In this document: positions 6,176-63,835 of the stretch, piece by piece
Layout of the letters: every line of letters starts with the position of its first letter
Position numbering within the stretch: the first letter of the stretch is position 1
Source of the DNA: an uncultured virus (IMG/VR IMGVR_UViG_3300005920_000007)
Lineage: Duplodnaviria > Heunggongvirae > Uroviricota > Caudoviricetes
IMG/VR virus record: IMGVR_UViG_3300005920_000007
Length of the DNA: 64,000 nt
Reading direction: 5' to 3' (one strand)
Made by a program: the position numbers and the translations under genes
Notes under the pieces: model-generated
Seen by the model: only the letters and a program-made list of their open reading frames with translations
Database searches by the model: none
What the model was told of the DNA's origin: nothing

Positions 6176-6277
6176 CGCGGCCAATTTGCACACTAATAAA
6201 ACAAAGTTTTCTTGACAACACACACTGTTTTTGAGATACTAATTCTGCCAACACAACAGATAACAAAGGAAACATTT

Positions 6278-6871
6278 ATGGCCACTAAGGGCGTAAACAA
6301 AGTCATCCTTGTAGGTAATCTTGGGAACGATCCTGAGGTTCGCTACATGCCTAACGGCAATGCCGTTGCCAACTTAAGTCTAGCAACAAGCGAAAGCTGG
6401 AAAGATCAGCAGGGTCAAGTTCAGGAACGCACTGAATGGCACCGACTTACCATGTATCGCCGACTGGCTGAGATTGCTGGTGAATACCTGAAAAAAGGTT
6501 CACAAATTTACGTTGAAGGTAAACTTCAAACGCGCAAATGGCAAGATCAGCAGGGCCAAGACAGGTACACCACTGAAATCATTGTCGATCAGATGCAAAT
6601 GCTCGGCGGTCGCAATAACAATGGTGGCGGCAACCAAGGCAATAACCAAAATCAAGGTGGTTACAACCAGAACCAAGGCGGCGGTAATCAAGGTGGTTAC
6701 AACCAAAACCAAGGCGGCGGTAATCAAGGTGGTTACAACCAGAACCAAGGCGGCAATAATGGCGGTGGCAACCAAGGTGGCGGTAATCAAAATCAAGGCG
6801 GTCAGAACGCTGGTAAGAACCCACCTATGGCAGAACCAGATTTTGACTTTGATGACGATATTCCTTTTTAG
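6278..6871 (+). CDS. ssb: single-stranded DNA-binding protein
   Basis: [32 protein letters not shown] acidic tip. Confidence 0.98.
6615..6805 (+). repeat. Coding tandem repeats in the SSB linker (33-bp [16 protein letters not shown] units)
   Basis: Repeated aatcaaggtggttacaacca. Confidence 0.85.
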
Positions 6872-7146
6872 CGAAGGTTAAGTTATTGATTTATAAGGTT
6901 TTTTGAGGGGCGGACTCCCACCCACTACCTGCCCCTCACCCTCCCCCGCTACACCAAACAATAATACCAAAAACACAAAGATGCACCGACTACAGAAGAA
7001 ATACTTGTCGCCAAATACAACAGCGCAATGTTCCAAATATCGACTTCACTACCTTTTCTTCCTCGTGTCTCCATTTTTAGCGCGAGGCATTGACAACCAT
7101 CGCAGATTTTGAGATACTAATCCTGTCAACACAACAGGAGAATGAC

Positions 7147-10932: not shown

Positions 10933-11649
10933 ATGACATGCTCTCACCACCCAATGCCAGAGTTACAGGTAAGCTACCATGATGCCTCTTGCATTATTGA
11001 CGGTAAAGGCATTTCTTTTTCTGACGATAATCTCATCATGCACTCAGGGCTTCATGGTTTGGGTATGGCATATGTTATCGCCAACAACCTTCAAAAAAAC
11101 GACCAAGAAAATCACATCTTTCTTAGGCGTGCCGACATGGTGCCTGATGGCATTATTGATACAATAAAAACGACTGTTAATGTAAAAAGGAATCACTTAA
11201 CACTCTATCGCAAAGATGTGGCGGACTTCTTTCACGACGCAACCGGCTTTTTCGTCACTTACTTTGAACATGGTATTGGGATAACTAAGCTTCATAGCGC
11301 TGGTGGCCCTTGCGTTAAACAAAACGTCTATGCCACCGTGGTAACCCCAGATGGCGAACATTTTACTGGCACAAACCTTTGCCGTAACCCGCAAAAAGTA
11401 TGCCCTCGTGAAGTGCAAGGCATGAAATCCGGAGAAGGATACGAACTTTGTCAAAGCGTCTGCCAACAAGATGCGCATGCGGAGGTCAACGCCATCGCGC
11501 TGGCAGGGAAAAAGGCGAAAGGTAGTATTTTGTACCTCTCCGGCCATCTGTATGCCTGCGTAGGCTGCCAGTCGGTGATAAAAGAAGCAAATATTGCAGA
11601 GCTTCGAGTTATGAATAGCCGCGTTCCTTTTTATCGTTCAAAACCATAA
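10933..11649 (+). CDS. dCMP/cytidine deaminase-domain protein with unknown N-terminal domain
   Basis: HAEVNA and YACVGC zinc motifs. Confidence 0.85.
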   Translation: MTCSHHPMPELQVSYHDASCIIDGKGISFSDDNLIMHSGLHGLGMAYVIANNLQKNDQENHIFLRRADMVPDGIIDTIKTTVNVKRNHLTLYRKDVADFFHDATGFFVTYFEHGIGITKLHSAGGPCVKQNVYATVVTPDGEHFTGTNLCRNPQKVCPREVQGMKSGEGYELCQSVCQQDAHAEVNAIALAGKKAKGSILYLSGHLYACVGCQSVIKEANIAELRVMNSRVPFYRSKP

Positions 11650-13407: not shown

Positions 13408-13470
13408 AAAGATTGCATTTAGCCTCTCTTTTTGAGACAATAAAAACGTCAACACAACAGGAGAAACTTC

Positions 13471-16912: not shown

Positions 16913-16933
16913 TTAATAATCAATCAACAACAC

Positions 16934-16972
16934 AGAAGCGAGTTTCCCCCGCCATAACCTCGCTTCTTTTTT
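16934..16972 (+). terminator. Intrinsic terminator
   Basis: AGAAGCGAG/CTCGCTTCT plus T-tract. Confidence 0.75.
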
Positions 16973-17004
16973 ATTGACATTTTAATCAATACTGGTATTA
17001 TTAA

Positions 17005-17205
17005 CACAAGTTTCGAGAGCGTTACGACGCTATGACCGAAATGTGTGTTGCAGCACACGCCGCCTACCGCCCTTTGGGTGTTTGTTTTATACAGACCGGC
17101 CACTCTTGCACCATTGAATGCACACTTACGTTTATAATCGTTTACCGCGTGAGGCTTCAAGGTTAATTGGTAGGGCTTGAACATTCACATTCGGAGAACG
17201 CTATT
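17005..17205 (+). ncRNA. Structured leader E
   Basis: Promoter TTGACA(16974)...TATTAT; CCTACC 17063-17068 pairs with GGTAGG 17169-17174 in the loop of TTCAAG/CTTGAA. Confidence 0.7.
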
Positions 17206-17832: not shown

Positions 17833-17918
17833 CCATCATTTTATAGCCTGTGTTTGTTGACACAGGCTGTGTTTGTTGTTAACATAATAACCGTCAACAC
17901 AACAACAGGAACACACAC

Positions 17919-19291: not shown

Positions 19292-19358
19292 TAATTTTAT
19301 GTTGCAATGCGAGCTTGATTTTGGTATATTTTAAACGTCAACACAACAGGGGAACAAT

Positions 19359-21510: not shown

Positions 21511-21591
21511 TACGAGCAATATGTCGGTTTCTTATTGACAACACTCTCAGTTTTTGAGATACTAATCCTGTCAACACAACAGGAGAGAGAC

Positions 21592-28238: not shown

Positions 28239-28859
28239 ATGGTTAAACTACGCACTGACAACATTAACCCAAAACATCTTGCGCACATTGTGTGTGTTGA
28301 CGCTATGCATTTTGTAAACCGCAGCGAAGATGGTTTTTGCGACTTCACGCTAGAACCAGGCGATATCATCATTGCACGCCGCCACGAGCTTGAAAGAGAT
28401 TATCGCTTCCGTCAAGTTATGCCTATGCTGGTGTTTACGCACAAGGGCAAAATCTGGGCATATCGCCGCACTGAAAAAGGCGGTGAAAAGGGGCTTTATA
28501 ACAAGGTTGCTGTGGTGGTGGGCGGTCATTTTGACCTTGGCGACTTAGTGTATAATAAAAGCGTTATTGACCTTGAAAAGTCACTTGAGAAGTCTACTGC
28601 GCGTGAAATTGACGAAGAGGTCTTATTGAATGGGGCCAACGTTGTCAGTCAAACTAAGTTAGACAAAGTGATCACCGCTGATGTGACCGGCGTTGATGCG
28701 AAACACGTTGCTTTGGTTACGATGATAGAACTTGATGCCATGACGGTAGAAAGCAAGGAAGATGAGCTTGAGTCTCTCGGCTTCTTTTCGCCTGATGAAC
28801 TTCTTAATGGCGACTATGCTCTCGAAACATGGGCGACCATGATTTGCAAAATGATGTAA
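28239..28859 (+). CDS. NUDIX-family phosphoesterase-like protein
   Basis: RQxxP, GGH, AREIDEE. Confidence 0.8.
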   Translation: MVKLRTDNINPKHLAHIVCVDAMHFVNRSEDGFCDFTLEPGDIIIARRHELERDYRFRQVMPMLVFTHKGKIWAYRRTEKGGEKGLYNKVAVVVGGHFDLGDLVYNKSVIDLEKSLEKSTAREIDEEVLLNGANVVSQTKLDKVITADVTGVDAKHVALVTMIELDAMTVESKEDELESLGFFSPDELLNGDYALETWATMICKMM

Positions 28860-30427: not shown

Positions 30428-30474
30428 GTTGTGTTGACGTAGTCAATTTTACTAAAATTAACATCACAAGTCAA
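30428..30474 (-). promoter_or_regulatory. Repeat promoter copy (minus strand)
   Basis: TTGACT-N17-TAAAAT...GTCAACACAAC-GAGG. Confidence 0.8.
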
Positions 30475-30553
30475 CTTTTTTGAGGTTTTTGGTGTGAGCT
30501 ATGAGGGTAAAACTCGCCCCAGAAAAAACGGGGCGAGGTATGAAATTGAGATG

Positions 30554-35468: not shown

Positions 35469-35579
35469 CAAACAACGGTTTAACTTGCGGTGTTTTTTCT
35501 AAAAACATAAAAAAACGTTGACAACACACACAGCTTTTGCGATACTAATCCTGTCAACACAACAACGGAGTAACACCTT

Positions 35580-35924
35580 ATGTCAGCACTGACCTCTACA
35601 TTAAAAACAGCAATTTTAGCATCATGCGCAAGTATTCAAACGCGCATGGATAGCAATGACGATAGCACCAACATTGCTGGTGTCGACGCATTGATTGAAG
35701 AGGCCAAGAGCGCGTCTCTTGACAACCTTGCGGTCAACATTAAACGCGTCGATGACACCTTCATGGAATGGGTTAACGCGATGAATACGGTTGAGGCTAT
35801 CGAAGCTGCCGATGATGACGACGATGTCGATGACATTGATGACGCACATGAAGCAGAAACCGACGCCCGTGAAGAGCTTGAAGAGGCGCTTAATGATTTG
35901 CGTGCCGCGGCTGAGGTGATGTAA
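35580..35924 (+). CDS. highly acidic helical protein
   Basis: Follows repeat copy 35518. Confidence 0.8.
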   Translation: MSALTSTLKTAILASCASIQTRMDSNDDSTNIAGVDALIEEAKSASLDNLAVNIKRVDDTFMEWVNAMNTVEAIEAADDDDDVDDIDDAHEAETDAREELEEALNDLRAAAEVM

Positions 35925-36046
35925 GTCAATCACTGAGTGGCTGCTCTTGTTTATTTTCAATAGCAGCCTTTTCTATTAAAAAAACATTGACAATACACAC
36001 AGCATTTGAGACACTAACCCTGTCAACACAACAACGGAGCAACACC

Positions 36047-36538
36047 ATGATTTCAACCCTAACCAAAGCTGAATGCATCGACGCGCTATCTCACTTTGAT
36101 CGCGATGACATTGTTGTAGCAACATGCACGTTCGGTGACCGCGCTAGAACGATGCAGGCAGTACCACTGGGCGACCTTACATCTGGCTTTATCACCTCAT
36201 CGAGCTACTCAGACTCTGGGTATGCCGTGGTTGAGGAGGGCGATGAAGATGACAGCGACACCCCTATTCACTTCTTCGAACCGGGCGACGTCTCTGAACA
36301 TATGACGGTAGGCGACTTTCTCGATAACCTAACGGGACTTGATGATGACGACTTTGTTGTCGCTGCGTGGAACTACGGAGACCGCGGAAATACGATTCAG
36401 GCGATTGGTTTTAATGAGGTTAATGAGGTTTATCTTAACCGCAGCCCATCCTCGGACTCTGGCTACGCCGTAGTTGAGGAGGGGGATGAGGATGATGACG
36501 CAGTGCGCGCACTGGTCATCAACTACGAGGCCCTTTAA
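36047..36538 (+). CDS. acidic protein with two internal repeats
   Basis: DD.VVA...GDR..T.QA...SDSGYAVVEEGDEDD occurs twice; follows repeat copy 35987. Confidence 0.8.
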   Translation: MISTLTKAECIDALSHFDRDDIVVATCTFGDRARTMQAVPLGDLTSGFITSSSYSDSGYAVVEEGDEDDSDTPIHFFEPGDVSEHMTVGDFLDNLTGLDDDDFVVAAWNYGDRGNTIQAIGFNEVNEVYLNRSPSSDSGYAVVEEGDEDDDAVRALVINYEAL

Positions 36539-36610
36539 GTAACACTATGCGGGTGGCGATTTGCCACCCCTATCAAGACCTAACACAATCATCGTTCAAC
36601 AGGAGCTATC

Positions 36611-36979
36611 ATGTCTCACGCATCAACGAACAATAAACAAAAAACAAACCGTGTTAACGTGGAGAAACTGTGGACAGCGCTGCGAGAAAAACTTGGTGCG
36701 CAATCATCGATATTGGCGATGAAACTTGACGATGTGCTCGAAATGGAGCAACGCCTTAATGCTGAAAACGGGGTCTGCGGCAGTGAGTACATCGCCAAAA
36801 CTTCCCTGCTCTACCATATCGCGAACCAGCCGCTAAATAACATGAATTATAAGTTAGTGGGTCAAATGCGAGACAGCCTTATCATTGCGCTTACACTCGT
36901 CTTAGCCACTAACCCTGAGAACGATTACTTATCCGAATACGAAAGCGCCTTGGCGACCATTCTAATGAACCAAGGATAA
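36611..36979 (+). CDS. hypothetical protein
   Basis: AGGAG RBS. Confidence 0.8.
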   Translation: MSHASTNNKQKTNRVNVEKLWTALREKLGAQSSILAMKLDDVLEMEQRLNAENGVCGSEYIAKTSLLYHIANQPLNNMNYKLVGQMRDSLIIALTLVLATNPENDYLSEYESALATILMNQG

Positions 36980-36984
36980 TGCAC

Positions 36985-37167
36985 CCTGATGCGTCAACCA
37001 TCAGTATTGAATTTAAAGTCCCGGCACCTGTTGTTTTGTTGACGTAAAACACCCTCGCCGGGCATCCTTTACGTCGGCGGCCTGTTGTGTTGACGCCTTC
37101 TCGCCGCCGACCCTCACATTGTTGTGACGACAACGCCCGTACCAGGTTATGCTGGCGGGCTTTTTTG
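36985..37167 (+). ncRNA. Candidate 3'-UTR/sRNA antisense to the repeat-driven 5' UTRs
   Basis: GC stems presenting CCTGTTGTTTTGTTGACG (37027-37044) and CCTGTTGTGTTGACG (37081-37095); terminator at 37135-37166. Confidence 0.6.
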
Positions 37168-37270
37168 CATCTTTTAAATTTGATTATTTTCAATATTATG
37201 CGTAGAAAGGTTGACAACACACACACGATTTGAGATGATGACCTGGTCAACACAACAACGGAGAATGACA

Positions 37271-37456
37271 ATGTCAGAAAAGAAAATTCAATTAGTTCGT
37301 GAGGTCGCGAGCGAAGCAGGCAAGCTTAAACGCAAGATCATCAATGCACTTGATGAGTCTAACCCGAAATCGTACGAGGTGTCTCAGGCCGTTTCACAGC
37401 TGATTGCTGATCTTAATGAACTAGTGCAAAGCGCCCCTGTATCCGACAACGGTTAA
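37271..37456 (+). CDS. small hypothetical protein
   Basis: Follows repeat copy 37211. Confidence 0.7.
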   Translation: MSEKKIQLVREVASEAGKLKRKIINALDESNPKSYEVSQAVSQLIADLNELVQSAPVSDNG

Positions 37457-37507
37457 CCGCTTCCGTGCGCCCATTGTGGCGCACACCCACATAAAGGAAT
37501 TCATGGC

Positions 37508-38098
37508 ATGAATAACGCTGTTCCACTATCTAAAGAATACCTTGATGCCCTACTCTCTGGTATTGAGGGAAAAAGCACGGCGTTTGTTTCGTTGTTGCTG
37601 GTTGCGTTTGATGAGTTGTGCGATGCTGAAGCTCTTGAAGCTAATCTCGCGGCCATAATTGAAGCCAATGCGGGAGGGACTGCGGATGTTAATGCCGTCA
37701 TACCGATGGCGGTTCAATTCCGCACCTGCGCTCGTTCATTTGCTGCCCTACCACCTGAGTACAGTCAGGCTGAGCTAGAGGGCGCGAATGCGTTACTTAA
37801 AACCCTGGGTTACACTATTGATTTAGTCACGATATACGCCAACGTCATAAGCCGCATTCATTTTGCTAAAGAGGGCGTGGTGCTACGCGACTTAGTCAAC
37901 AACGGTGACACGCCAGAGGATTTGATTGCGCCTTACCCTGACGAAGCCCCTGAAGGCAAGGTGAGAGAAACGTGGCTGGCACGGGTCAAAGAAGTGGGTC
38001 GCGACGACATTGTCGCATGGCATGACGATGTGATGGCTCGCCATGATGATGGGGATGCGATCATTACCATGATACTGACGCAATCAGAATGGGAATGA
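37508..38098 (+). CDS. hypothetical protein
   Basis: AAGGA RBS. Confidence 0.75.
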   Translation: MNNAVPLSKEYLDALLSGIEGKSTAFVSLLLVAFDELCDAEALEANLAAIIEANAGGTADVNAVIPMAVQFRTCARSFAALPPEYSQAELEGANALLKTLGYTIDLVTIYANVISRIHFAKEGVVLRDLVNNGDTPEDLIAPYPDEAPEGKVRETWLARVKEVGRDDIVAWHDDVMARHDDGDAIITMILTQSEWE

Positions 38099-38259
38099 CA
38101 CGTTGTGACAACATCCATTTGAAAGGCGCACTGCGCCTTTTTTGCTTCCCTTACGACGGTTTTCGTCGTTTAACAATCAACCACTGTGCACAAATTTATT
38201 GACAACACTCTCAGTTTTTGCGATACTTATTCTGTCAACACAACAGAGAGAATCTCATT

Positions 38260-39222: not shown

Positions 39223-39336
39223 TGTAACTATATGCGCTTTACGAGAGTAAGGCGCAACACTTAACTTACACTTAACCTTGACAACACTCTCAGCTTTTGA
39301 GATACTCATCCTGTCAACGAAACAGGAGTTTACATC

Positions 39337-40517: not shown

Positions 40518-42689
40518 CTATTCATTCTCTTGTGGCAAGGCCGCTTGCTCACGTGCCGCCTCACACGCGTCTTTAATGGCGTTAAACACCTCGTACGCCA
40601 CGCTATTAAGCTCTGGCGGTGTGTCACTATTGGAAAACCCTTTAGCTTGCGCCAATCGTCCCGAACTGCGTTCAAATTGATAGGTGAACGTTTCATCAGA
40701 CCTATTACCTGTAGACAGGGCGAAAATCACCGCTGAGCCATCCGTACAACGGTCAGCATAGTAGCGTGTGCCTACACAGTGATGTTGAGCACGGCCTAGT
40801 GCTCGGAGGGCTTTTGTGTCCTCCGGCAGCGTCAATGTGACGTGTGACGGGAGGTTTTTAGCGATGGTGTCAAGCTGCGCAATAGCATCGGCCTGATAGA
40901 AACGCGCATTGACGGTACTGATTGAGAAGTCACGTTGCTGCTTGTTGCTTAAGTAGCTATGAAATGCTTCACCGTAGTCTTTCTTAGACGCAAGCCATTT
41001 ACGCACCAACGCACACTGTTTGGCGCTTTCATCAGGGCAATCTCGTGCAATGAGCGTTGCTAACATACGAAACACATCTCGCGCTTCGGTAATGGCGTTA
41101 TCCATCACAACGGCTACCATTTCATCGTGTGACAAAAAAGCCAAACAGGTGCGTAGTGACGGCGCATCAATGGCAAGCCCTGCGCGCTTCTGCGCCTGTT
41201 TACCTGTGCCTAATGCACTATTAATCTGCGCAAGAAACTGAATGTATCCGTGACGGTCGAGTTTGCCACGTGAATTGGTAAACACGCTCTGCAATGCGCT
41301 TAGTGCGGTCAAGGACTCCGCCTCTTGACTGTCGAACAAGAACTGCACCTCTTGAGGGTGTTTTGAACCAATGAGCATTTTGGTCATCGCCTTGGGCGAA
41401 TTAACACTCTTGAAGTCAAACAGATCATACCCGTAATCATTATGCAAGATGAGGTAGTTCTTTAATGACGTAAGCAACGCGAACGCGGGGCTTTCATTGA
41501 AGAGTGTTTTATCATAATCCTTATTAGAACTCATAATGCTCTCACGTACGCGGTAGAGACACTTAAACGTGCTGTCTGAGACATTGGGGTGCATCGCGAC
41601 ACGCATTTGGATAGTGTGATCGGGGTCGTACGCCAGCATATCCAAGATGCCCGACGGGACATTACCACTGCTTAGCAGCTTGCGTACTAATAAGGAGTCA
41701 ACAGGCTCGCGCTCGATGAATTGTGAAACGACCTCCGGTGACAATGTATCTACGCGGTCAAGAATGGCGTAGCACAACGCGTCACAGCTGCCCTGGTATT
41801 CCAACAGCATCGCTTCCGCTTGCGCATCTGAGAAATTAAGCCGGTGAAAACCTTCATCAATACCGTATTGAGAGGCGTCGCACTTAACCAGCTCAATAAA
41901 ATCGGATTGCTTCATGTCAGCGTTTTTAAATGCGGCGTCGTACACATCCGATACATACCTTGCTCGACAGTCTGTATTGGCATTGTTTTGCACATACGCT
42001 AAAACTTCGCGAAATTGCTCCATCGTATGTTCGTGATTATCTAGCAACGCAATGCGTATCCGGCATGTGCTATTAGGCTCTATTTCCAGCGCTAACAGGC
42101 GATTAAACAACGAACGTGAACATGCGGCGTTTTCAGCCACTTTGATGTATATGTTGGTATGGAGCGTCTTATCTTCAACGCGTGGAACAGCAGCAACGAT
42201 ATCGCTCAATACAGCATCACATGACGCAGCTTGCCCCATTTCAGCAAGCAGCGATGCATTATTCATTGCAATAATAGCATCAGCACGTTCCCACGGGAAT
42301 GCGCGATGATTGACTATGTTCTGCGCCATGAAACTTACATTTCCGTCAGAATACTCACCATCAATAACGCGATTGAGAAGACGGTTATACAGTGCCTCTG
42401 GCACTCGCTCGCTGTACAGTGAAAGCACATCCAGCGCAGGATTAAGCGCCAGCAATTCGCTGACCTCATTGTCGCTAAATGCGGGGTGATTGAGCATCTG
42501 TGCCATACTCTCAATACTTTTAGCATTGGCGTAGTACCCCGCCACAAATCTCGGTGTCTCGCTTTCTAATACATCCCGCATGATACACTTGGGGAAATTA
42601 GGTGCACTCAGTGCGACCTGCATCTTTCGCGAGCAGCAGCTATTAAACATTTTTTTTAGTTGCGATGGACTGTAATAACGGTGAGTCAT
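40518..42689 (-). CDS. Large helical-repeat protein with C-terminal PcfJ-like domain
   Basis: LRV-like repeats (VAMHPNVS, VAENAAC); LRALGRAQHHCVG.Y and QAKGFSN. Confidence 0.75.
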   Translation of the reverse strand: MTHRYYSPSQLKKMFNSCCSRKMQVALSAPNFPKCIMRDVLESETPRFVAGYYANAKSIESMAQMLNHPAFSDNEVSELLALNPALDVLSLYSERVPEALYNRLLNRVIDGEYSDGNVSFMAQNIVNHRAFPWERADAIIAMNNASLLAEMGQAASCDAVLSDIVAAVPRVEDKTLHTNIYIKVAENAACSRSLFNRLLALEIEPNSTCRIRIALLDNHEHTMEQFREVLAYVQNNANTDCRARYVSDVYDAAFKNADMKQSDFIELVKCDASQYGIDEGFHRLNFSDAQAEAMLLEYQGSCDALCYAILDRVDTLSPEVVSQFIEREPVDSLLVRKLLSSGNVPSGILDMLAYDPDHTIQMRVAMHPNVSDSTFKCLYRVRESIMSSNKDYDKTLFNESPAFALLTSLKNYLILHNDYGYDLFDFKSVNSPKAMTKMLIGSKHPQEVQFLFDSQEAESLTALSALQSVFTNSRGKLDRHGYIQFLAQINSALGTGKQAQKRAGLAIDAPSLRTCLAFLSHDEMVAVVMDNAITEARDVFRMLATLIARDCPDESAKQCALVRKWLASKKDYGEAFHSYLSNKQQRDFSISTVNARFYQADAIAQLDTIAKNLPSHVTLTLPEDTKALRALGRAQHHCVGTRYYADRCTDGSAVIFALSTGNRSDETFTYQFERSSGRLAQAKGFSNSDTPPELNSVAYEVFNAIKDACEAAREQAALPQENE

Positions 42690-42861
42690 TATGTAAACCC
42701 TGTGTGTTGACGATTTATGCCAATTATATCTAAATAAAGCCGCTAAATCAACATAAAAGTGCGAGCGTTGCCCTCGCTATGATGCCGCAAAACCAAAACA
42801 ATTGACTTCACTCACAGGCTGTGAGACACTTCTTTTTGTCAACACAACACAGGAATACATT

Positions 42862-52179: not shown

Positions 52180-52899
52180 ATGCGTACGTCATTTGTCACC
52201 TTGCTGTTTTCTGTATTTCTATCCACATCAGCGCTTGCTGTTGATGTCGTAAAGAAAAGCAGTAGCGGCATTTGCCACGACACCAGCAGCAACTGGTATG
52301 AAAAAACGAAGAACTTCACAGCCTATGCCACCATGGAGGCCTGTGTTGATTCTGGTGGACGCGCACCGCGCAATTACACCGGCACTAAACCGAAAGATAA
52401 CCTACCGCAAGGCGAACGCTATGATCGCGACGCATGGGAGCACTGGGTGGACGACGACAATGATTGCCAGAACACGCGTGCTGAGGTCTTGATTAGTCAC
52501 TCAGCGACCCCTGTTCTTTACAATAACATTATAAAACGATGTTATGTGACACGCGGTAAGTGGTATGGCGTCTATTCTGGCGAATACTATTATGACGACG
52601 ACGATCTTGATATTGACCACATTGTGCCCCTTGCCTATGCGCATGCGCACGGTGGTGATAAATGGAGCGCCGCTCAAAAGCGTGCTTTTGCCAACGATAT
52701 GGACAACCTTCTCCCTGTTAGCGCATCATTAAACAGGCAGAAATCTGCAAAAGGGCCGACTGACTGGATGCCGCCTTATCAACCTTACCGCTGCGAGTAT
52801 TTAGGTGAGTTTGACGGCATTATGAAAAAGTACTCTCTTGAGTATTTCCCTCACGAACTGCGCGTCATCAATAAAATGAAAAGCGCCTGCAATATGTAA
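52180..52899 (+). CDS. secreted HNH endonuclease (DUF1524-like)
   Basis: Signal peptide; DIDHIVPL, FAND..NL, NRQKSAKGP. Confidence 0.88.
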   Translation: MRTSFVTLLFSVFLSTSALAVDVVKKSSSGICHDTSSNWYEKTKNFTAYATMEACVDSGGRAPRNYTGTKPKDNLPQGERYDRDAWEHWVDDDNDCQNTRAEVLISHSATPVLYNNIIKRCYVTRGKWYGVYSGEYYYDDDDLDIDHIVPLAYAHAHGGDKWSAAQKRAFANDMDNLLPVSASLNRQKSAKGPTDWMPPYQPYRCEYLGEFDGIMKKYSLEYFPHELRVINKMKSACNM

Positions 52900-58093: not shown

Positions 58094-58197
58094 CTTATCT
58101 CACCGCACATCAAAAACCTTGACAACACTCGCAGCTTTTGAGATACTAACTTTGTCAACACACATCGCCCCAGCGATAACAAATAAGGTTAACATTT

Positions 58198-58425
58198 ATG
58201 CCCACTCATCCATGTAGCGTCAATGATGCCATCAACACCTGTGCAGGCGAGCTCCCAGAGGGCTGGCGAGTGCGACTTGATATTGAACTACACGGCTCAG
58301 GCATGTCCATCATCGATCCGGATGGCAATGAACACGATTTTGACAGCGGAGGCGAAAGCCTCGCCGATGATTTTCTTTACGCCCTTGAGCTGGCGAAACA
58401 AAAAAACAACAAGGAAAAACCATGA
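58198..58425 (+). CDS. small hypothetical protein
   Basis: Follows repeat copy 58119. Confidence 0.75.
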   Translation: MPTHPCSVNDAINTCAGELPEGWRVRLDIELHGSGMSIIDPDGNEHDFDSGGESLADDFLYALELAKQKNNKEKP

Positions 58426-61086: not shown

Positions 61087-62340
61087 ATGAGAATTAAATC
61101 GATAAATGAAGGAAAGGCGCTGCTTTTGCTTGAACGACACAAACACTGCGACCAGACCATGCACGCACTTTCCCGCGCATTATATGTTGGCATAAGAAAC
61201 AGCCTCATCACACTGCTAGGCGCGCTGCTTTTGCTAGTTGCGCTCTCAGATATAAAAGCGACAACATTGATGTTTCTCGCTTTCATAGGCGCCATAGCGC
61301 CTCTTTTCTACATCGCTGTGCACGCGTTCTTTGAGCGACGTGACGCTATCCGTCGAGGTGATCACAATGGCATCCTTAAACTTGCCCTGCGCCTGCCCGA
61401 ACAAACCAGTAAAATTATCCCTTATGGGCTGCCTTTTGGATTGAGCGTAATTTTTTACGAAGCGTACTCCACCCTCACTACGGGCACGTTCGCATCCTCC
61501 ATGCTGCTAGGCACATGCCTTATTGTGACGGTCTATAGCGCGACGCTTTTCTTATTCAATAGCGCTAAACCTGCGCATGAGGCGAGAAACAAAAAGAGCG
61601 CGATGGATGTCGCACTCAGTGAATTTGAAACATCAGATAGCGGCAAGCAGACCGCAGTGCTTAAGCGTTTTGGATTTTATCTTTCCAGCAGCCATAACAA
61701 ATTTGGCAGCCTTCTCACCTCAAAAGAAGAGCAATCAGCTGTTATTGAGGCCGGTAAAGGTGTGATTAAAAGCCACAGTCAGGCCCGGGACGCTATTTAC
61801 CTTCAAAACGGTTTAATGACTTGTCTTATCACAGTGGCCACGGTCATTTTTATGTACATTGCTCACCATGGATTAGTCACGCTAACTGACACACAAGCAG
61901 CTTCATACCCGCTCTCACTAATGATGGGGTTGTTCGGACTTTACGTCGGGCGTCACATTGGACTTAGTTTGTCTGTCAACCCTACGCTTGACTTTACCAC
62001 GACCAATGAGCACGATGCTTATGACTATACGGGGCCACGAGCAAGTGATTTGATACGCTCACGAGCATTTTCGGTCACCTCTCCCCTTATTCCTGTTGTC
62101 ATGATGGCACTTACTCTAGCCCCTTCGACGCTATTTTCGTCGGCAACGGCCGAGGTTGCGTTCCAGCTTGCATTGATCACGTTCTTGCCATTGCTTTTGA
62201 ATGCTGCGGTGACTCGAATGTCACTGAGCATCATTGCCAGCACGGAGCGTGACATTGATGCGCTAAGGCGTGATGTAGAGTATGCTAAGAAAAAATCCAA
62301 CGTCTTGCAGTTCCATCGCAAGCATAAAGCGAGCGCTTAA
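61087..62340 (+). CDS. multi-pass membrane protein (about 8 TM)
   Basis: Paired hydrophobic segments. Confidence 0.8.
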   Translation: MRIKSINEGKALLLLERHKHCDQTMHALSRALYVGIRNSLITLLGALLLLVALSDIKATTLMFLAFIGAIAPLFYIAVHAFFERRDAIRRGDHNGILKLALRLPEQTSKIIPYGLPFGLSVIFYEAYSTLTTGTFASSMLLGTCLIVTVYSATLFLFNSAKPAHEARNKKSAMDVALSEFETSDSGKQTAVLKRFGFYLSSSHNKFGSLLTSKEEQSAVIEAGKGVIKSHSQARDAIYLQNGLMTCLITVATVIFMYIAHHGLVTLTDTQAASYPLSLMMGLFGLYVGRHIGLSLSVNPTLDFTTTNEHDAYDYTGPRASDLIRSRAFSVTSPLIPVVMMALTLAPSTLFSSATAEVAFQLALITFLPLLLNAAVTRMSLSIIASTERDIDALRRDVEYAKKKSNVLQFHRKHKASA

Positions 62341-62396
62341 CATGGTAGGCAACCTGTGTTACAATGACAATGTCAACACAACACAGGTTATTCTCT

Positions 62397-63760: not shown

Positions 63761-63835
63761 ATGTCTCTTTTTATTGACAACACTCTCAGCTTTTGAGATA
63801 CTAATCCTGTCAACACAACAGTCTCGGAGAGCACT

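Follow-up and report, generated by a model that had tools for sequence, protein, structure and literature searches.

Several described systems bear on the locus considered here, a putative regulatory RNA module at positions 36985-37167 of a 64,000-nucleotide (nt) stretch of DNA from an uncultured virus (IMG/VR record IMGVR_UViG_3300005920_000007; the entire stretch, which recurs without any difference within a marine metagenome contig of 486 kb, L002, is referred to below as the window). The c4 RNA of P1/P7 is cut from an operon transcript, and its loops pair with short repeated target boxes and thereby block expression. FinP of F-like plasmids, which is antisense to traJ, consists of two stem-loops and a terminator, with loops that pair with the 5' untranslated region (UTR) and ribosome-binding site (RBS) of the target. 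Base-pairing small RNAs (sRNAs) that derive from 3' UTRs and end in a terminator exist in Gram-negatives, CpxQ and SroC being examples, and in the leading region of the IncN plasmids (pKM101/R46) the early genes each lie behind a repeated promoter, the CUP repeat, with protein repressors acting on the DNA. To our knowledge, sRNAs with multiple targets recognize unrelated host genes through short, degenerate seeds. Yang, Figueroa-Bossi & Bossi (2014, PMC3879156) describe CA-rich/ACA elements located just upstream of the Shine-Dalgarno (SD) sequence in enterobacteria as translation enhancers that are silenced by the GU-rich R1 segment of GcvB. The module in the window encloses, in the loops of GC-rich hairpins, the complement of a CA-rich leader shared by about 45 transcripts of the same element; judging from sequence comparison and structure modeling, the chances seem about even that it is the non-coding 3' end of an operon whose loops pair with these leaders and repress their translation.

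So how does this locus compare with the known systems? The likeness to GcvB (PMC3879156) lies in the GU-rich accessible seed directed against CA-rich enhancers near or in the RBS of more than 40 mRNAs, with lowered translation as the outcome, and in the intrinsic terminator. Unlike GcvB, to which Rfam reveals no homology in sequence or structure, the module places its seeds in loops closed by GC stems and appears to be a 3' UTR of a mobile element, with the element's own genes as putative targets that share one identical leader with 13-18 nt of complementarity. With c4, the module has in common that an element-encoded RNA within an operon transcript carries loops matching repeated boxes, although processing is putative in the present case; unlike the module, which would address some 45 separate transcripts, c4 lies upstream of its targets in one operon and one mRNA. 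No Rfam family, including the C4 antisense RNA (presumably RF01695) and GcvB (presumably RF00022), matches the window at the gathering score or the region 36900-37250 at E-values up to 10. The resemblance to RNAs of the CpxQ/SroC type consists in that the module comprises the last 150-180 nt of an mRNA, ends in the terminator of that mRNA, follows an AU-rich linker and has a conserved seed near the terminator, whereas the seeds of the module are multiple and located in loops, and its targets would be a leader common to a whole element. The anatomy of the module also bears a loose resemblance to that of FinP, but unlike the case of FinP or CopA, nothing is encoded opposite the module, and the targets lie at 44 other sites. 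As with the CUP repeats, a repeated promoter unit precedes each of many genes for early functions or establishment in a mobile element, but the added layer here would be an RNA acting against the shared leader, and the repeat is present in at least 44 copies. A search of the full-text literature on leading-region repeated promoters, plasmid 3'-UTR sRNAs and the motif itself found no description of such a system.

The putative targets are defined by a promoter-leader repeat with an 11-mer core, GTCAACACAAC, that occurs in the window in 44 plus-strand copies (at most one mismatch), to which the leaders of two minus-strand genes are to be added; the figure of about 48 copies given in the preliminary description of this locus has to be revised to these counts. 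The layout is nearly always the same, namely, TTGACAAC, a spacer of 17 bp with TG-n at its end, GATACT, 6 nt, GTCAACACAAC, the SD sequence and, 8-16 nt further on, ATG. Since the leader starts 7 nt past the end of the -10 element (the TG-extended GATACT), the G of GTCAAC in the core is predicted from promoter spacing to be the 5' end of the mRNA (+1), CAACACAAC being the leader segment named for the transcripts of the repeat promoters. The leader is CA-rich, unstructured and 5'-terminal, and consists of GUCAACACAAC followed by AGG or AACAGG and then by the SD sequence; two subtypes can be distinguished, a short one (...CAAC-AGG) and a long one (...CAAC-AAC-(A/G)GG). The leader is retained also behind promoters from outside the family, at 13448, 17893, 19337 and 62372 on the plus strand and at 30438 on the minus strand, and it is present in a variant form before a minus-strand gene at 42703. 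This retention behind unrelated promoters suggests that the leader is selected in its own right, independently of the promoter.

Some further features of this family can be noted. The repeat promoters are near-consensus (TTGACA, 17-bp spacer, TG-extended GATACT) at the 44 plus-strand sites, e.g. 21535-21583, 35518-35563 and 63774-63822, and their spacer and -10 element hold an inverted repeat, TCTCA..TGAGA, that is a conceivable operator; no regulator for the repeat family was identified in the window. The non-family promoters that carry the leader are located at 13413-13461, 17860-17909, 19302-19350, 62340-62385 and, on the minus strand, 30438-30490, with -35 and -10 elements such as TTGCAA..TATATT and TTGACT..TAAAAT, and the leader copies behind them begin with CGTCAAC, the form matched 15/15 in the module. 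Variant leaders, GTCAACGAAACAGGAG (39270-39320) and GTCAACACACATCGCC (58150-58200), are found behind otherwise typical repeat promoters.

The complementarity between the module and these leaders is extensive and far in excess of chance. The two GC stems, SL-A and SL-B, that enclose anti-leader sequence, and the terminator at 37135-37166 that follows them, are present exactly as initially described (Table 1). Positions 37081-37095 in SL-B are the exact reverse complement of CGTCAACACAACAGG, a 15-mer that recurs without mismatch at 13447 and 19336 and with a single mismatch at 7124, 21569, 23561, 49965 and 57042; these are the copies that had been listed, respectively, as 13413 and 19302 and as 7090, 21535, 23527, 49931 and 57008, coordinates that refer to the -35 starts 34 nt upstream of the 15-mer matches, and the degree of complementarity reported for each of them holds. 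The complement of SL-B has 20 matches with at most two mismatches in the window, compared with 0.19 expected from shuffles. The unit in SL-A is three bases longer, and 17 of its 18 bases are complementary to the long leader CGTCAACACAACAACAGG at 17892-17909, the lone mismatch being a U that completes the inner helix of this hairpin. Given that SL-B matches a short leader at 15 of 15 positions and SL-A a long one at 17 of 18, the two loops correspond to the two leader subtypes, with SL-B suiting the short subtype and SL-A together with a third, degenerate unit (unit 3) suiting the long one.

When the SL-B loop is set against the 44 leaders, contiguous Watson-Crick pairing that starts at +1 or -1 extends over at least 11 bp in 36 of the 44 and over at least 12 bp in 28, compared with a random control in which only 1.5% of 3000 windows of 25 nt reach 8 contiguous pairs. 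The mean energy of the duplex between leader and SL-B loop is -19.9 kcal/mol, at opening costs of 3.5 kcal/mol for the loop and, on average, 1.3 kcal/mol for nt 1-14 of the leader, and the anti-leader loops are predicted to be accessible. In the predicted duplex, both ACA motifs are paired, as is the beginning of the SD sequence. In a scan of 24-nt windows over the plus strand, the leaders average -22.1 kcal/mol versus a background of -10.5 ± 3.8; at a threshold of -18 kcal/mol or below, the leaders account for 43 of 290 sites, and many GC-rich non-leader sites score equally well because the 24-nt probe included stem bases. The duplex scans used the loop only; the full 182-nt module gave unrealistically long duplexes.

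The predicted fold presents the anti-leader units in a manner compatible with such pairing. SL-B is the most stable element (-20.4 kcal/mol, z-score -3.7, none of 200 shuffles as good), and its loop contains the leader complement followed by GCCTTCTC. In SL-A, which encloses the unit CCTGTTGTTTTGTTGACG (37027-37044), an inner helix, UGUUUUG/UAAAACA (37032-37038 with 37045-37051), leaves a 6-nt apical loop, UUGACG. The two hairpins share CCTGTTGT..GTTGACG..(G/A)CC(T/C)TC..GCCG and differ in their stems, and they look like diverged tandem copies. The weak upstream hairpin HP0, whose stem and loop had been pointed out in the preliminary description, is present as well; its loop, CGTCAAC, is a sense copy of the leader start and is complementary to the GTTGACG of both anti-leader loops, either of which it may engage in a kissing interaction over 7 complementary bases and mask. 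The AU-rich linker behind it is a candidate cut site for an RNase E-type endonuclease. The U-run of the terminator is on the plus strand, that is, the strand of the upstream gene, and the whole 193 nt fold better than shuffles on both strands (z-scores of -2.8 and -2.9).

Table 1. Coordinates of the module, of the operon that carries it and of the recognizable genes of the window
Feature	Positions	Strand	Remarks
Repeat-family promoter and leader	35987-36046	plus	-35 TTGACA 35987-35992; -10 GACACT 36010-36015; leader GTCAACACAACAACGGAG from 36022
First cistron	36047-36538	plus	163 aa, very acidic, internally duplicated; no known family
Hairpin GGGTGGC/GCCACCC	36550-36589	plus	no U-run; overlaps weak sigma-70-like match; unchanged in L004 and L005
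Second cistron	36611-36979	plus	122 aa, predicted all-helical; no family
HP0, weak hairpin CTGATG/CATCAG	36986-37004	plus	loop CGTCAAC 36992-36998; -5.8 kcal/mol
AU-rich single-stranded linker	37005-37019	plus	most variable part of the module
SL-A	37020-37062	plus	6-bp GC stem CCCGGC 37020-37025 / GCCGGG 37057-37062; -15.8 kcal/mol
SL-B	37073-37111	plus	9-bp GC stem GTCGGCGGC 37073-37081 / GCCGCCGAC 37103-37111; 21-nt loop 37082-37102
Third, degenerate anti-leader unit ATTGTTGTGACG in weak hairpin	37113-37134 (unit ~37116-37129)	plus	directly before terminator
Intrinsic terminator	37135-37166	plus	bulged GC stem 37135-37160 and U6 37161-37166; -15.3 kcal/mol
SSB	6212-6871		Pfam, E = 2e-43
Cytidine/dCMP-deaminase-like domain protein	10933-11649		Pfam
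723-aa protein with PcfJ-like C-terminus	40518-42689	minus	Pfam
GmrSD_C/HNH nuclease-like protein	52180-52899		Pfam

The search for additional sites of this kind in the window was negative. The two occurrences of the plus-strand core GTTGTGTTGAC (11 nt, at most one mismatch) in the module are the only ones that do not lead minus-strand genes; those at 30428 and 42703 were discarded as candidate anti-leader sites for that reason, being leaders of minus-strand genes. Also rejected was 28293-28304, a 12-nt match TGTGTGTTGACG that lies within the coding sequence (CDS) 28239-28859 and lacks a flanking hairpin; it may be a chance match or the leader of a minus-strand transcript. The remaining GTTGACG sites in the window show no similar fold, which leaves one module in 64 kb.

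Comparison of the orthologous modules in the window and in two related contigs, L004 (a contig of 230 kb) and L005, bears out the conservation that the preliminary description had proposed to look for in related replicons: the module is kept in both, and the changes fall outside the stems and motifs. The module varies in 9 of 183 columns, compared with 49 of 369 in the upstream CDS and 13 of 43 in the spacer behind the terminator; in the next promoter with its leader, 8 of 60 columns are variable, none of them in the leader. All 8 substitutions in the module are located in 84 nt outside the outer stems (59 positions) and the motifs (40 positions of anti-leader units and HP0 loop), for which the probability by chance is roughly (84/183)^8, or about 0.002. 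The substitution A37051G converts a U-A pair in the SL-A inner helix to U-G, a change that a plus-strand RNA would tolerate, whereas on the opposite strand it gives a mismatch. The only difference in the terminator is an additional U in L005. Between the cistrons, the 70 nt from 36541 to 36610 are likewise invariant in both relatives, whereas the following CDS varies at 13% of the columns.

A further observation comes from metatranscriptome run X15, in which a contig matches only 37082-37101, the 20-nt SL-B loop, and does so twice, with 29 nt in between. The second loop copy is flanked by a perfect 10-bp inverted repeat, GCTGCACGCT/AGCGTGCAGC, unlike the stems of either SL-A or SL-B, and past this second hairpin the contig continues with an A-run and then GC-rich letters. 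It appears from this contig that the element, at another place, or a relative carries a further module of two hairpins, in which the same 20-nt loop is combined with other stems. A constant loop within changing stems is the pattern expected of a single-stranded element that depends on structure.

In what transcript would the module be made? Neither promoter scan nor inspection revealed a credible promoter for the module alone; the sequence GATAAT at 36975-36980, considered as its own -10 element, was rejected in view of the lack of an acceptable -35 element and of the altered spacing caused by a 6-nt insertion in the relatives. Because no promoter of its own was found, the best explanation of the arrangement seems to be that the module is the 3' UTR of the 36047-36979 operon, possibly processed, rather than a free-standing sRNA gene. 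The initial proposal of a trans-acting sRNA thus survives in part: a base-pairing RNA fits the complementarity, the open loops and the conservation, but an independent transcription unit gives way to an operon 3' UTR. The operon and the module are most likely driven by the repeat promoter at 35987, as originally supposed, although this is not, as had been stated, the nearest one upstream, given a weak sigma-70-like match (TTGCCA-17-CACAAT, 9/12) at 36561-36589 that is closer to the module. The next promoter past the module is at 37211, and the local leaders at 35553, 36022 and 37246 all belong to the long subtype. The invariant 70 nt between the cistrons also hold a shortened leader-like sequence, CGTTCAACAGGAG. 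In three of the four RNA runs for which assembled contigs were available, the contigs span the whole stretch and may represent DNA or read-through, so they are uninformative with regard to an sRNA; in run X19, short contigs cover neighboring genes and none covers 36627-37265, a gap from which nothing can be concluded in either direction. Where contigs end close to the repeat promoters, the cause is probably interruption of the assembly by repeats and not the start of a transcript.

The possible mechanism could be as follows. Transcription would proceed from the repeat promoter at 35987, and perhaps also from the weak match at 36561-36589, to the terminator at 37135-37166, and either the whole 3' UTR or a fragment of about 150 nt cut at the AU-rich linker would then pair with the leaders of some 45 mRNAs. 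The GU-rich open loops would base-pair with the CA-rich, 5'-terminal leaders, SL-B with those of the short subtype, SL-A and unit 3 with those of the long subtype, so that the ACA-type translation enhancer and the border of the RBS would be covered, with less translation of the first gene of each transcript as the result. Translational repression is the most likely outcome to be expected by analogy with the ACA enhancers silenced by GcvB R1, and since the promoters giving rise to the RNA would be of the very family under its control, the loop would amount to negative feedback; the direction of the effect, both repression and the delayed feedback originally proposed, we infer. A wider picture, in which about 45 early transcripts of a giant marine mobile element with one identical leader are governed by a small set of 3'-UTR anti-leader modules, namely the present one and at least one paralogous pair elsewhere, with loops that track the leader subtypes, is more tentative, and we would give it somewhat less than even chances.

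Several observations weigh against this scheme. Pairing with the leader leaves GCCUUCU, the conserved 3' portion of the loop, unaccounted for. The predicted fold of the 1147-nt transcript pairs its own leader with unit 3 or SL-A, so an action in cis is possible. No RNA chaperone or RNA-binding protein family was detected in the window, including a Pfam scan of 45 small open reading frames (ORFs). The single promoter of the module is of the same strength class as those of its approximately 45 targets, and stoichiometric repression would therefore require a much longer half-life of the RNA. HP0 with the U-containing tail UAUUGAAUUU satisfies a simple terminator rule and could cut read-through into the module, but the hairpin is weak, so that read-through is probable. 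The orthologues are only three, close relatives without variation in the stems, so that covariation rests on paralogues, one of which, that of X15, is seen only in a table of read placements. Finally, the RNA runs consist of assembled contigs, which show neither RNA ends nor strand nor level.

The most probable of the alternatives, even if we consider it unlikely, is a 3' UTR that acts exclusively in cis, such that the units pair with their own 5' leader or the hairpins protect the 3' end, with an effect on stability or translation confined to one operon. The module has no separate promoter, the local leaders are of the long subtype that is best fitted by SL-A and unit 3, and in the minimum free energy fold of the whole transcript the leader at 36022-36039 indeed pairs with unit 3, the mean per-nucleotide pairing probabilities being 0.46 for unit 3 and 0.32 for SL-A. 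Nevertheless, long-range fold predictions are unreliable, and the unit with the greatest stability and openness, SL-B, matches the short subtype and not the leader of its own operon, with a pairing probability in cis of 0.00; furthermore, the paralogous hairpin pair with the same loop elsewhere suggests a shared class of targets.

Somewhat less probable still is a function at the level of DNA, be it by offering a GTCAACACAAC-binding protein of the promoters extra sites, as a decoy or a roadblock, or as hairpins in the transferred single strand of a conjugative element that serve in priming or recognition. The window resembles an establishment or leading region (SSB, a PcfJ-like protein, small genes on one strand), the minus strand is predicted to form the hairpins just as well (z-score -2.9), and a DNA-binding factor can be envisaged in view of the fixed position of the motif in each promoter. 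However, changing the stems around a constant loop would be pointless for a site in duplex DNA, and only in a plus-strand RNA would the inner helix of SL-A retain its G-U pairs, among them the one created by A37051G. The stems consist of 6-9 bp of G/C without a -35/-10 pair, which is not the make-up of a single-strand promoter of the Frpo type or ssi; no family of DNA-binding regulators was found in the window, and no relaxase or transfer gene was seen there, so that the conjugative context is itself hypothetical. The decoy, which the preliminary description had offered as its own alternative, is much inferior to a base-pairing RNA as an explanation of the complementarity that begins at the predicted +1, of the accessible loops, of the conserved stems and motifs and of the changed stem of the paralogue. 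The related notion that the module is an inverted copy of the promoter repeat was rejected for lack of -35/-10 elements at the family spacing on the minus strand: no promoter is apparent in the 35 nt upstream of the inverted cores (CGTCAC..CGGCGA) or in the promoter scan, in agreement with what had been stated at the outset.

At a comparably low level of probability, the module could be a relic, i.e. inverted leader fragments caught between GC palindromes that serve as 3'-end stabilizers or spare terminators, with a functionless complementarity. Such an interpretation draws on the presence of only one module in 64 kb, on the closeness of the relatives, in which conservation may partly reflect short divergence, on the invariance also of 36541-36610, and on the finding that GC-rich hairpins (perfect stem of at least 7 bp, loop of 12-40 nt) are not more common than in shuffles (21 vs 15.8 ± 5.0). 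It is at odds with the avoidance of 99 stem and motif positions by all 8 substitutions while the flanking non-coding DNA varies at 13 of 43, with the identity of the 20-nt loop in a paralogue that has an unrelated stem, and with the match of two loops to two different leader subtypes.

A mimic of a GcvB-type seed that is directed at CA-rich enhancers of host mRNAs, for example those of transporters, is very unlikely. The composition of the seed and the logic of targeting are as described for GcvB R1 and CA-rich/ACA enhancers (PMC3879156), but the complementarity to the element's own leaders, 13-18 nt from the exact +1, goes beyond generic GU/CA matching, and GcvB is not matched in Rfam even at the permissive E-values given above. 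Finally, the possibility that the minus strand encodes a product, in a frame of 23 codons behind the inverted leader copy (37067 down to 36996) or in a 120-codon ORF (36909-37271), can be practically dismissed: although the inverted SL-B motif is followed on the minus strand by AAAGGATG, the three L004 substitutions in the 23-codon frame would be synonymous and the 120-aa ORF is present in the ORF list, there is no minus-strand promoter, the short frame has SD-like bases abutting its start codon, a GTG start in the relatives and three L005 changes that are all non-synonymous, and the long one is broken by 1-nt indels in both L004 and L005.

Turning to the operon and the element at large, searches of Pfam, PHROGs, NCBIfam and PDB sequences returned no match for the products of 36047-36538, 36611-36979 and 37271-37456. 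The 163-aa product is an internal tandem duplication in which either half closes with acidic runs resembling SDSGYAVVEEGDEDD, a feature that recalls DNA-mimic anti-restriction proteins. Homologues of the 122-aa protein that are 89-96% identical are found in marine metagenomes; its AlphaFold model has a mean pLDDT of 51. The genes in the window are almost all small, of unrecognized function and on one strand, and Pfam names four of the 70 larger ORFs (Table 1), to which searches of the window proteins against PHROGs and NCBIfam added nothing useful. The 723-aa PcfJ-like protein has distant tblastn matches on Vibrio plasmids of 300 kb, at 23% identity, and the look-up of the SSB in the atlas gave no useful taxonomy. 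Neither a tRNA nor a tmRNA was detected in the window. The DNA of the element is present in many marine metagenomes; nucleotide queries with 35900-38200 and 36540-37300 had no match in plasmid and phage collections, a 61-nt SL-B query against plasmids gave only GC-rich chance matches (E = 0.4-5), and in the viral contig collection the promoter-leader pattern, the loop pattern and a protein-based scan each had zero hits. Among the contigs of species genomes, the promoter-leader pattern occurs once, in an archaeal (Natronomonas) metagenome-assembled genome, which is taken to be a chance match. Two long gaps, 1386-1711 and 16913-17166, lack a family leader but contain promoter-like sequences of other kinds, and they are predicted to fold strongly (-101 and -62 kcal/mol, respectively); these gaps may hold further non-coding RNAs or small genes.

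If the proposed scheme is correct, a single short RNA would, via a tag common to their mRNAs, determine the output of dozens of genes that are transcribed separately, a form of RNA control that would be simpler and more complete than that exerted by the known multi-target sRNAs. The leader, with two ACA motifs at its very 5' end before the SD sequence, would be a natural test case for CA-rich enhancers, and the leader and anti-leader would form a compact, portable pair for coordinated gene control. In terms of the biology of large mobile elements, the module would show how such elements could time the burst of early or establishment genes, and its shut-off, without a protein repressor.

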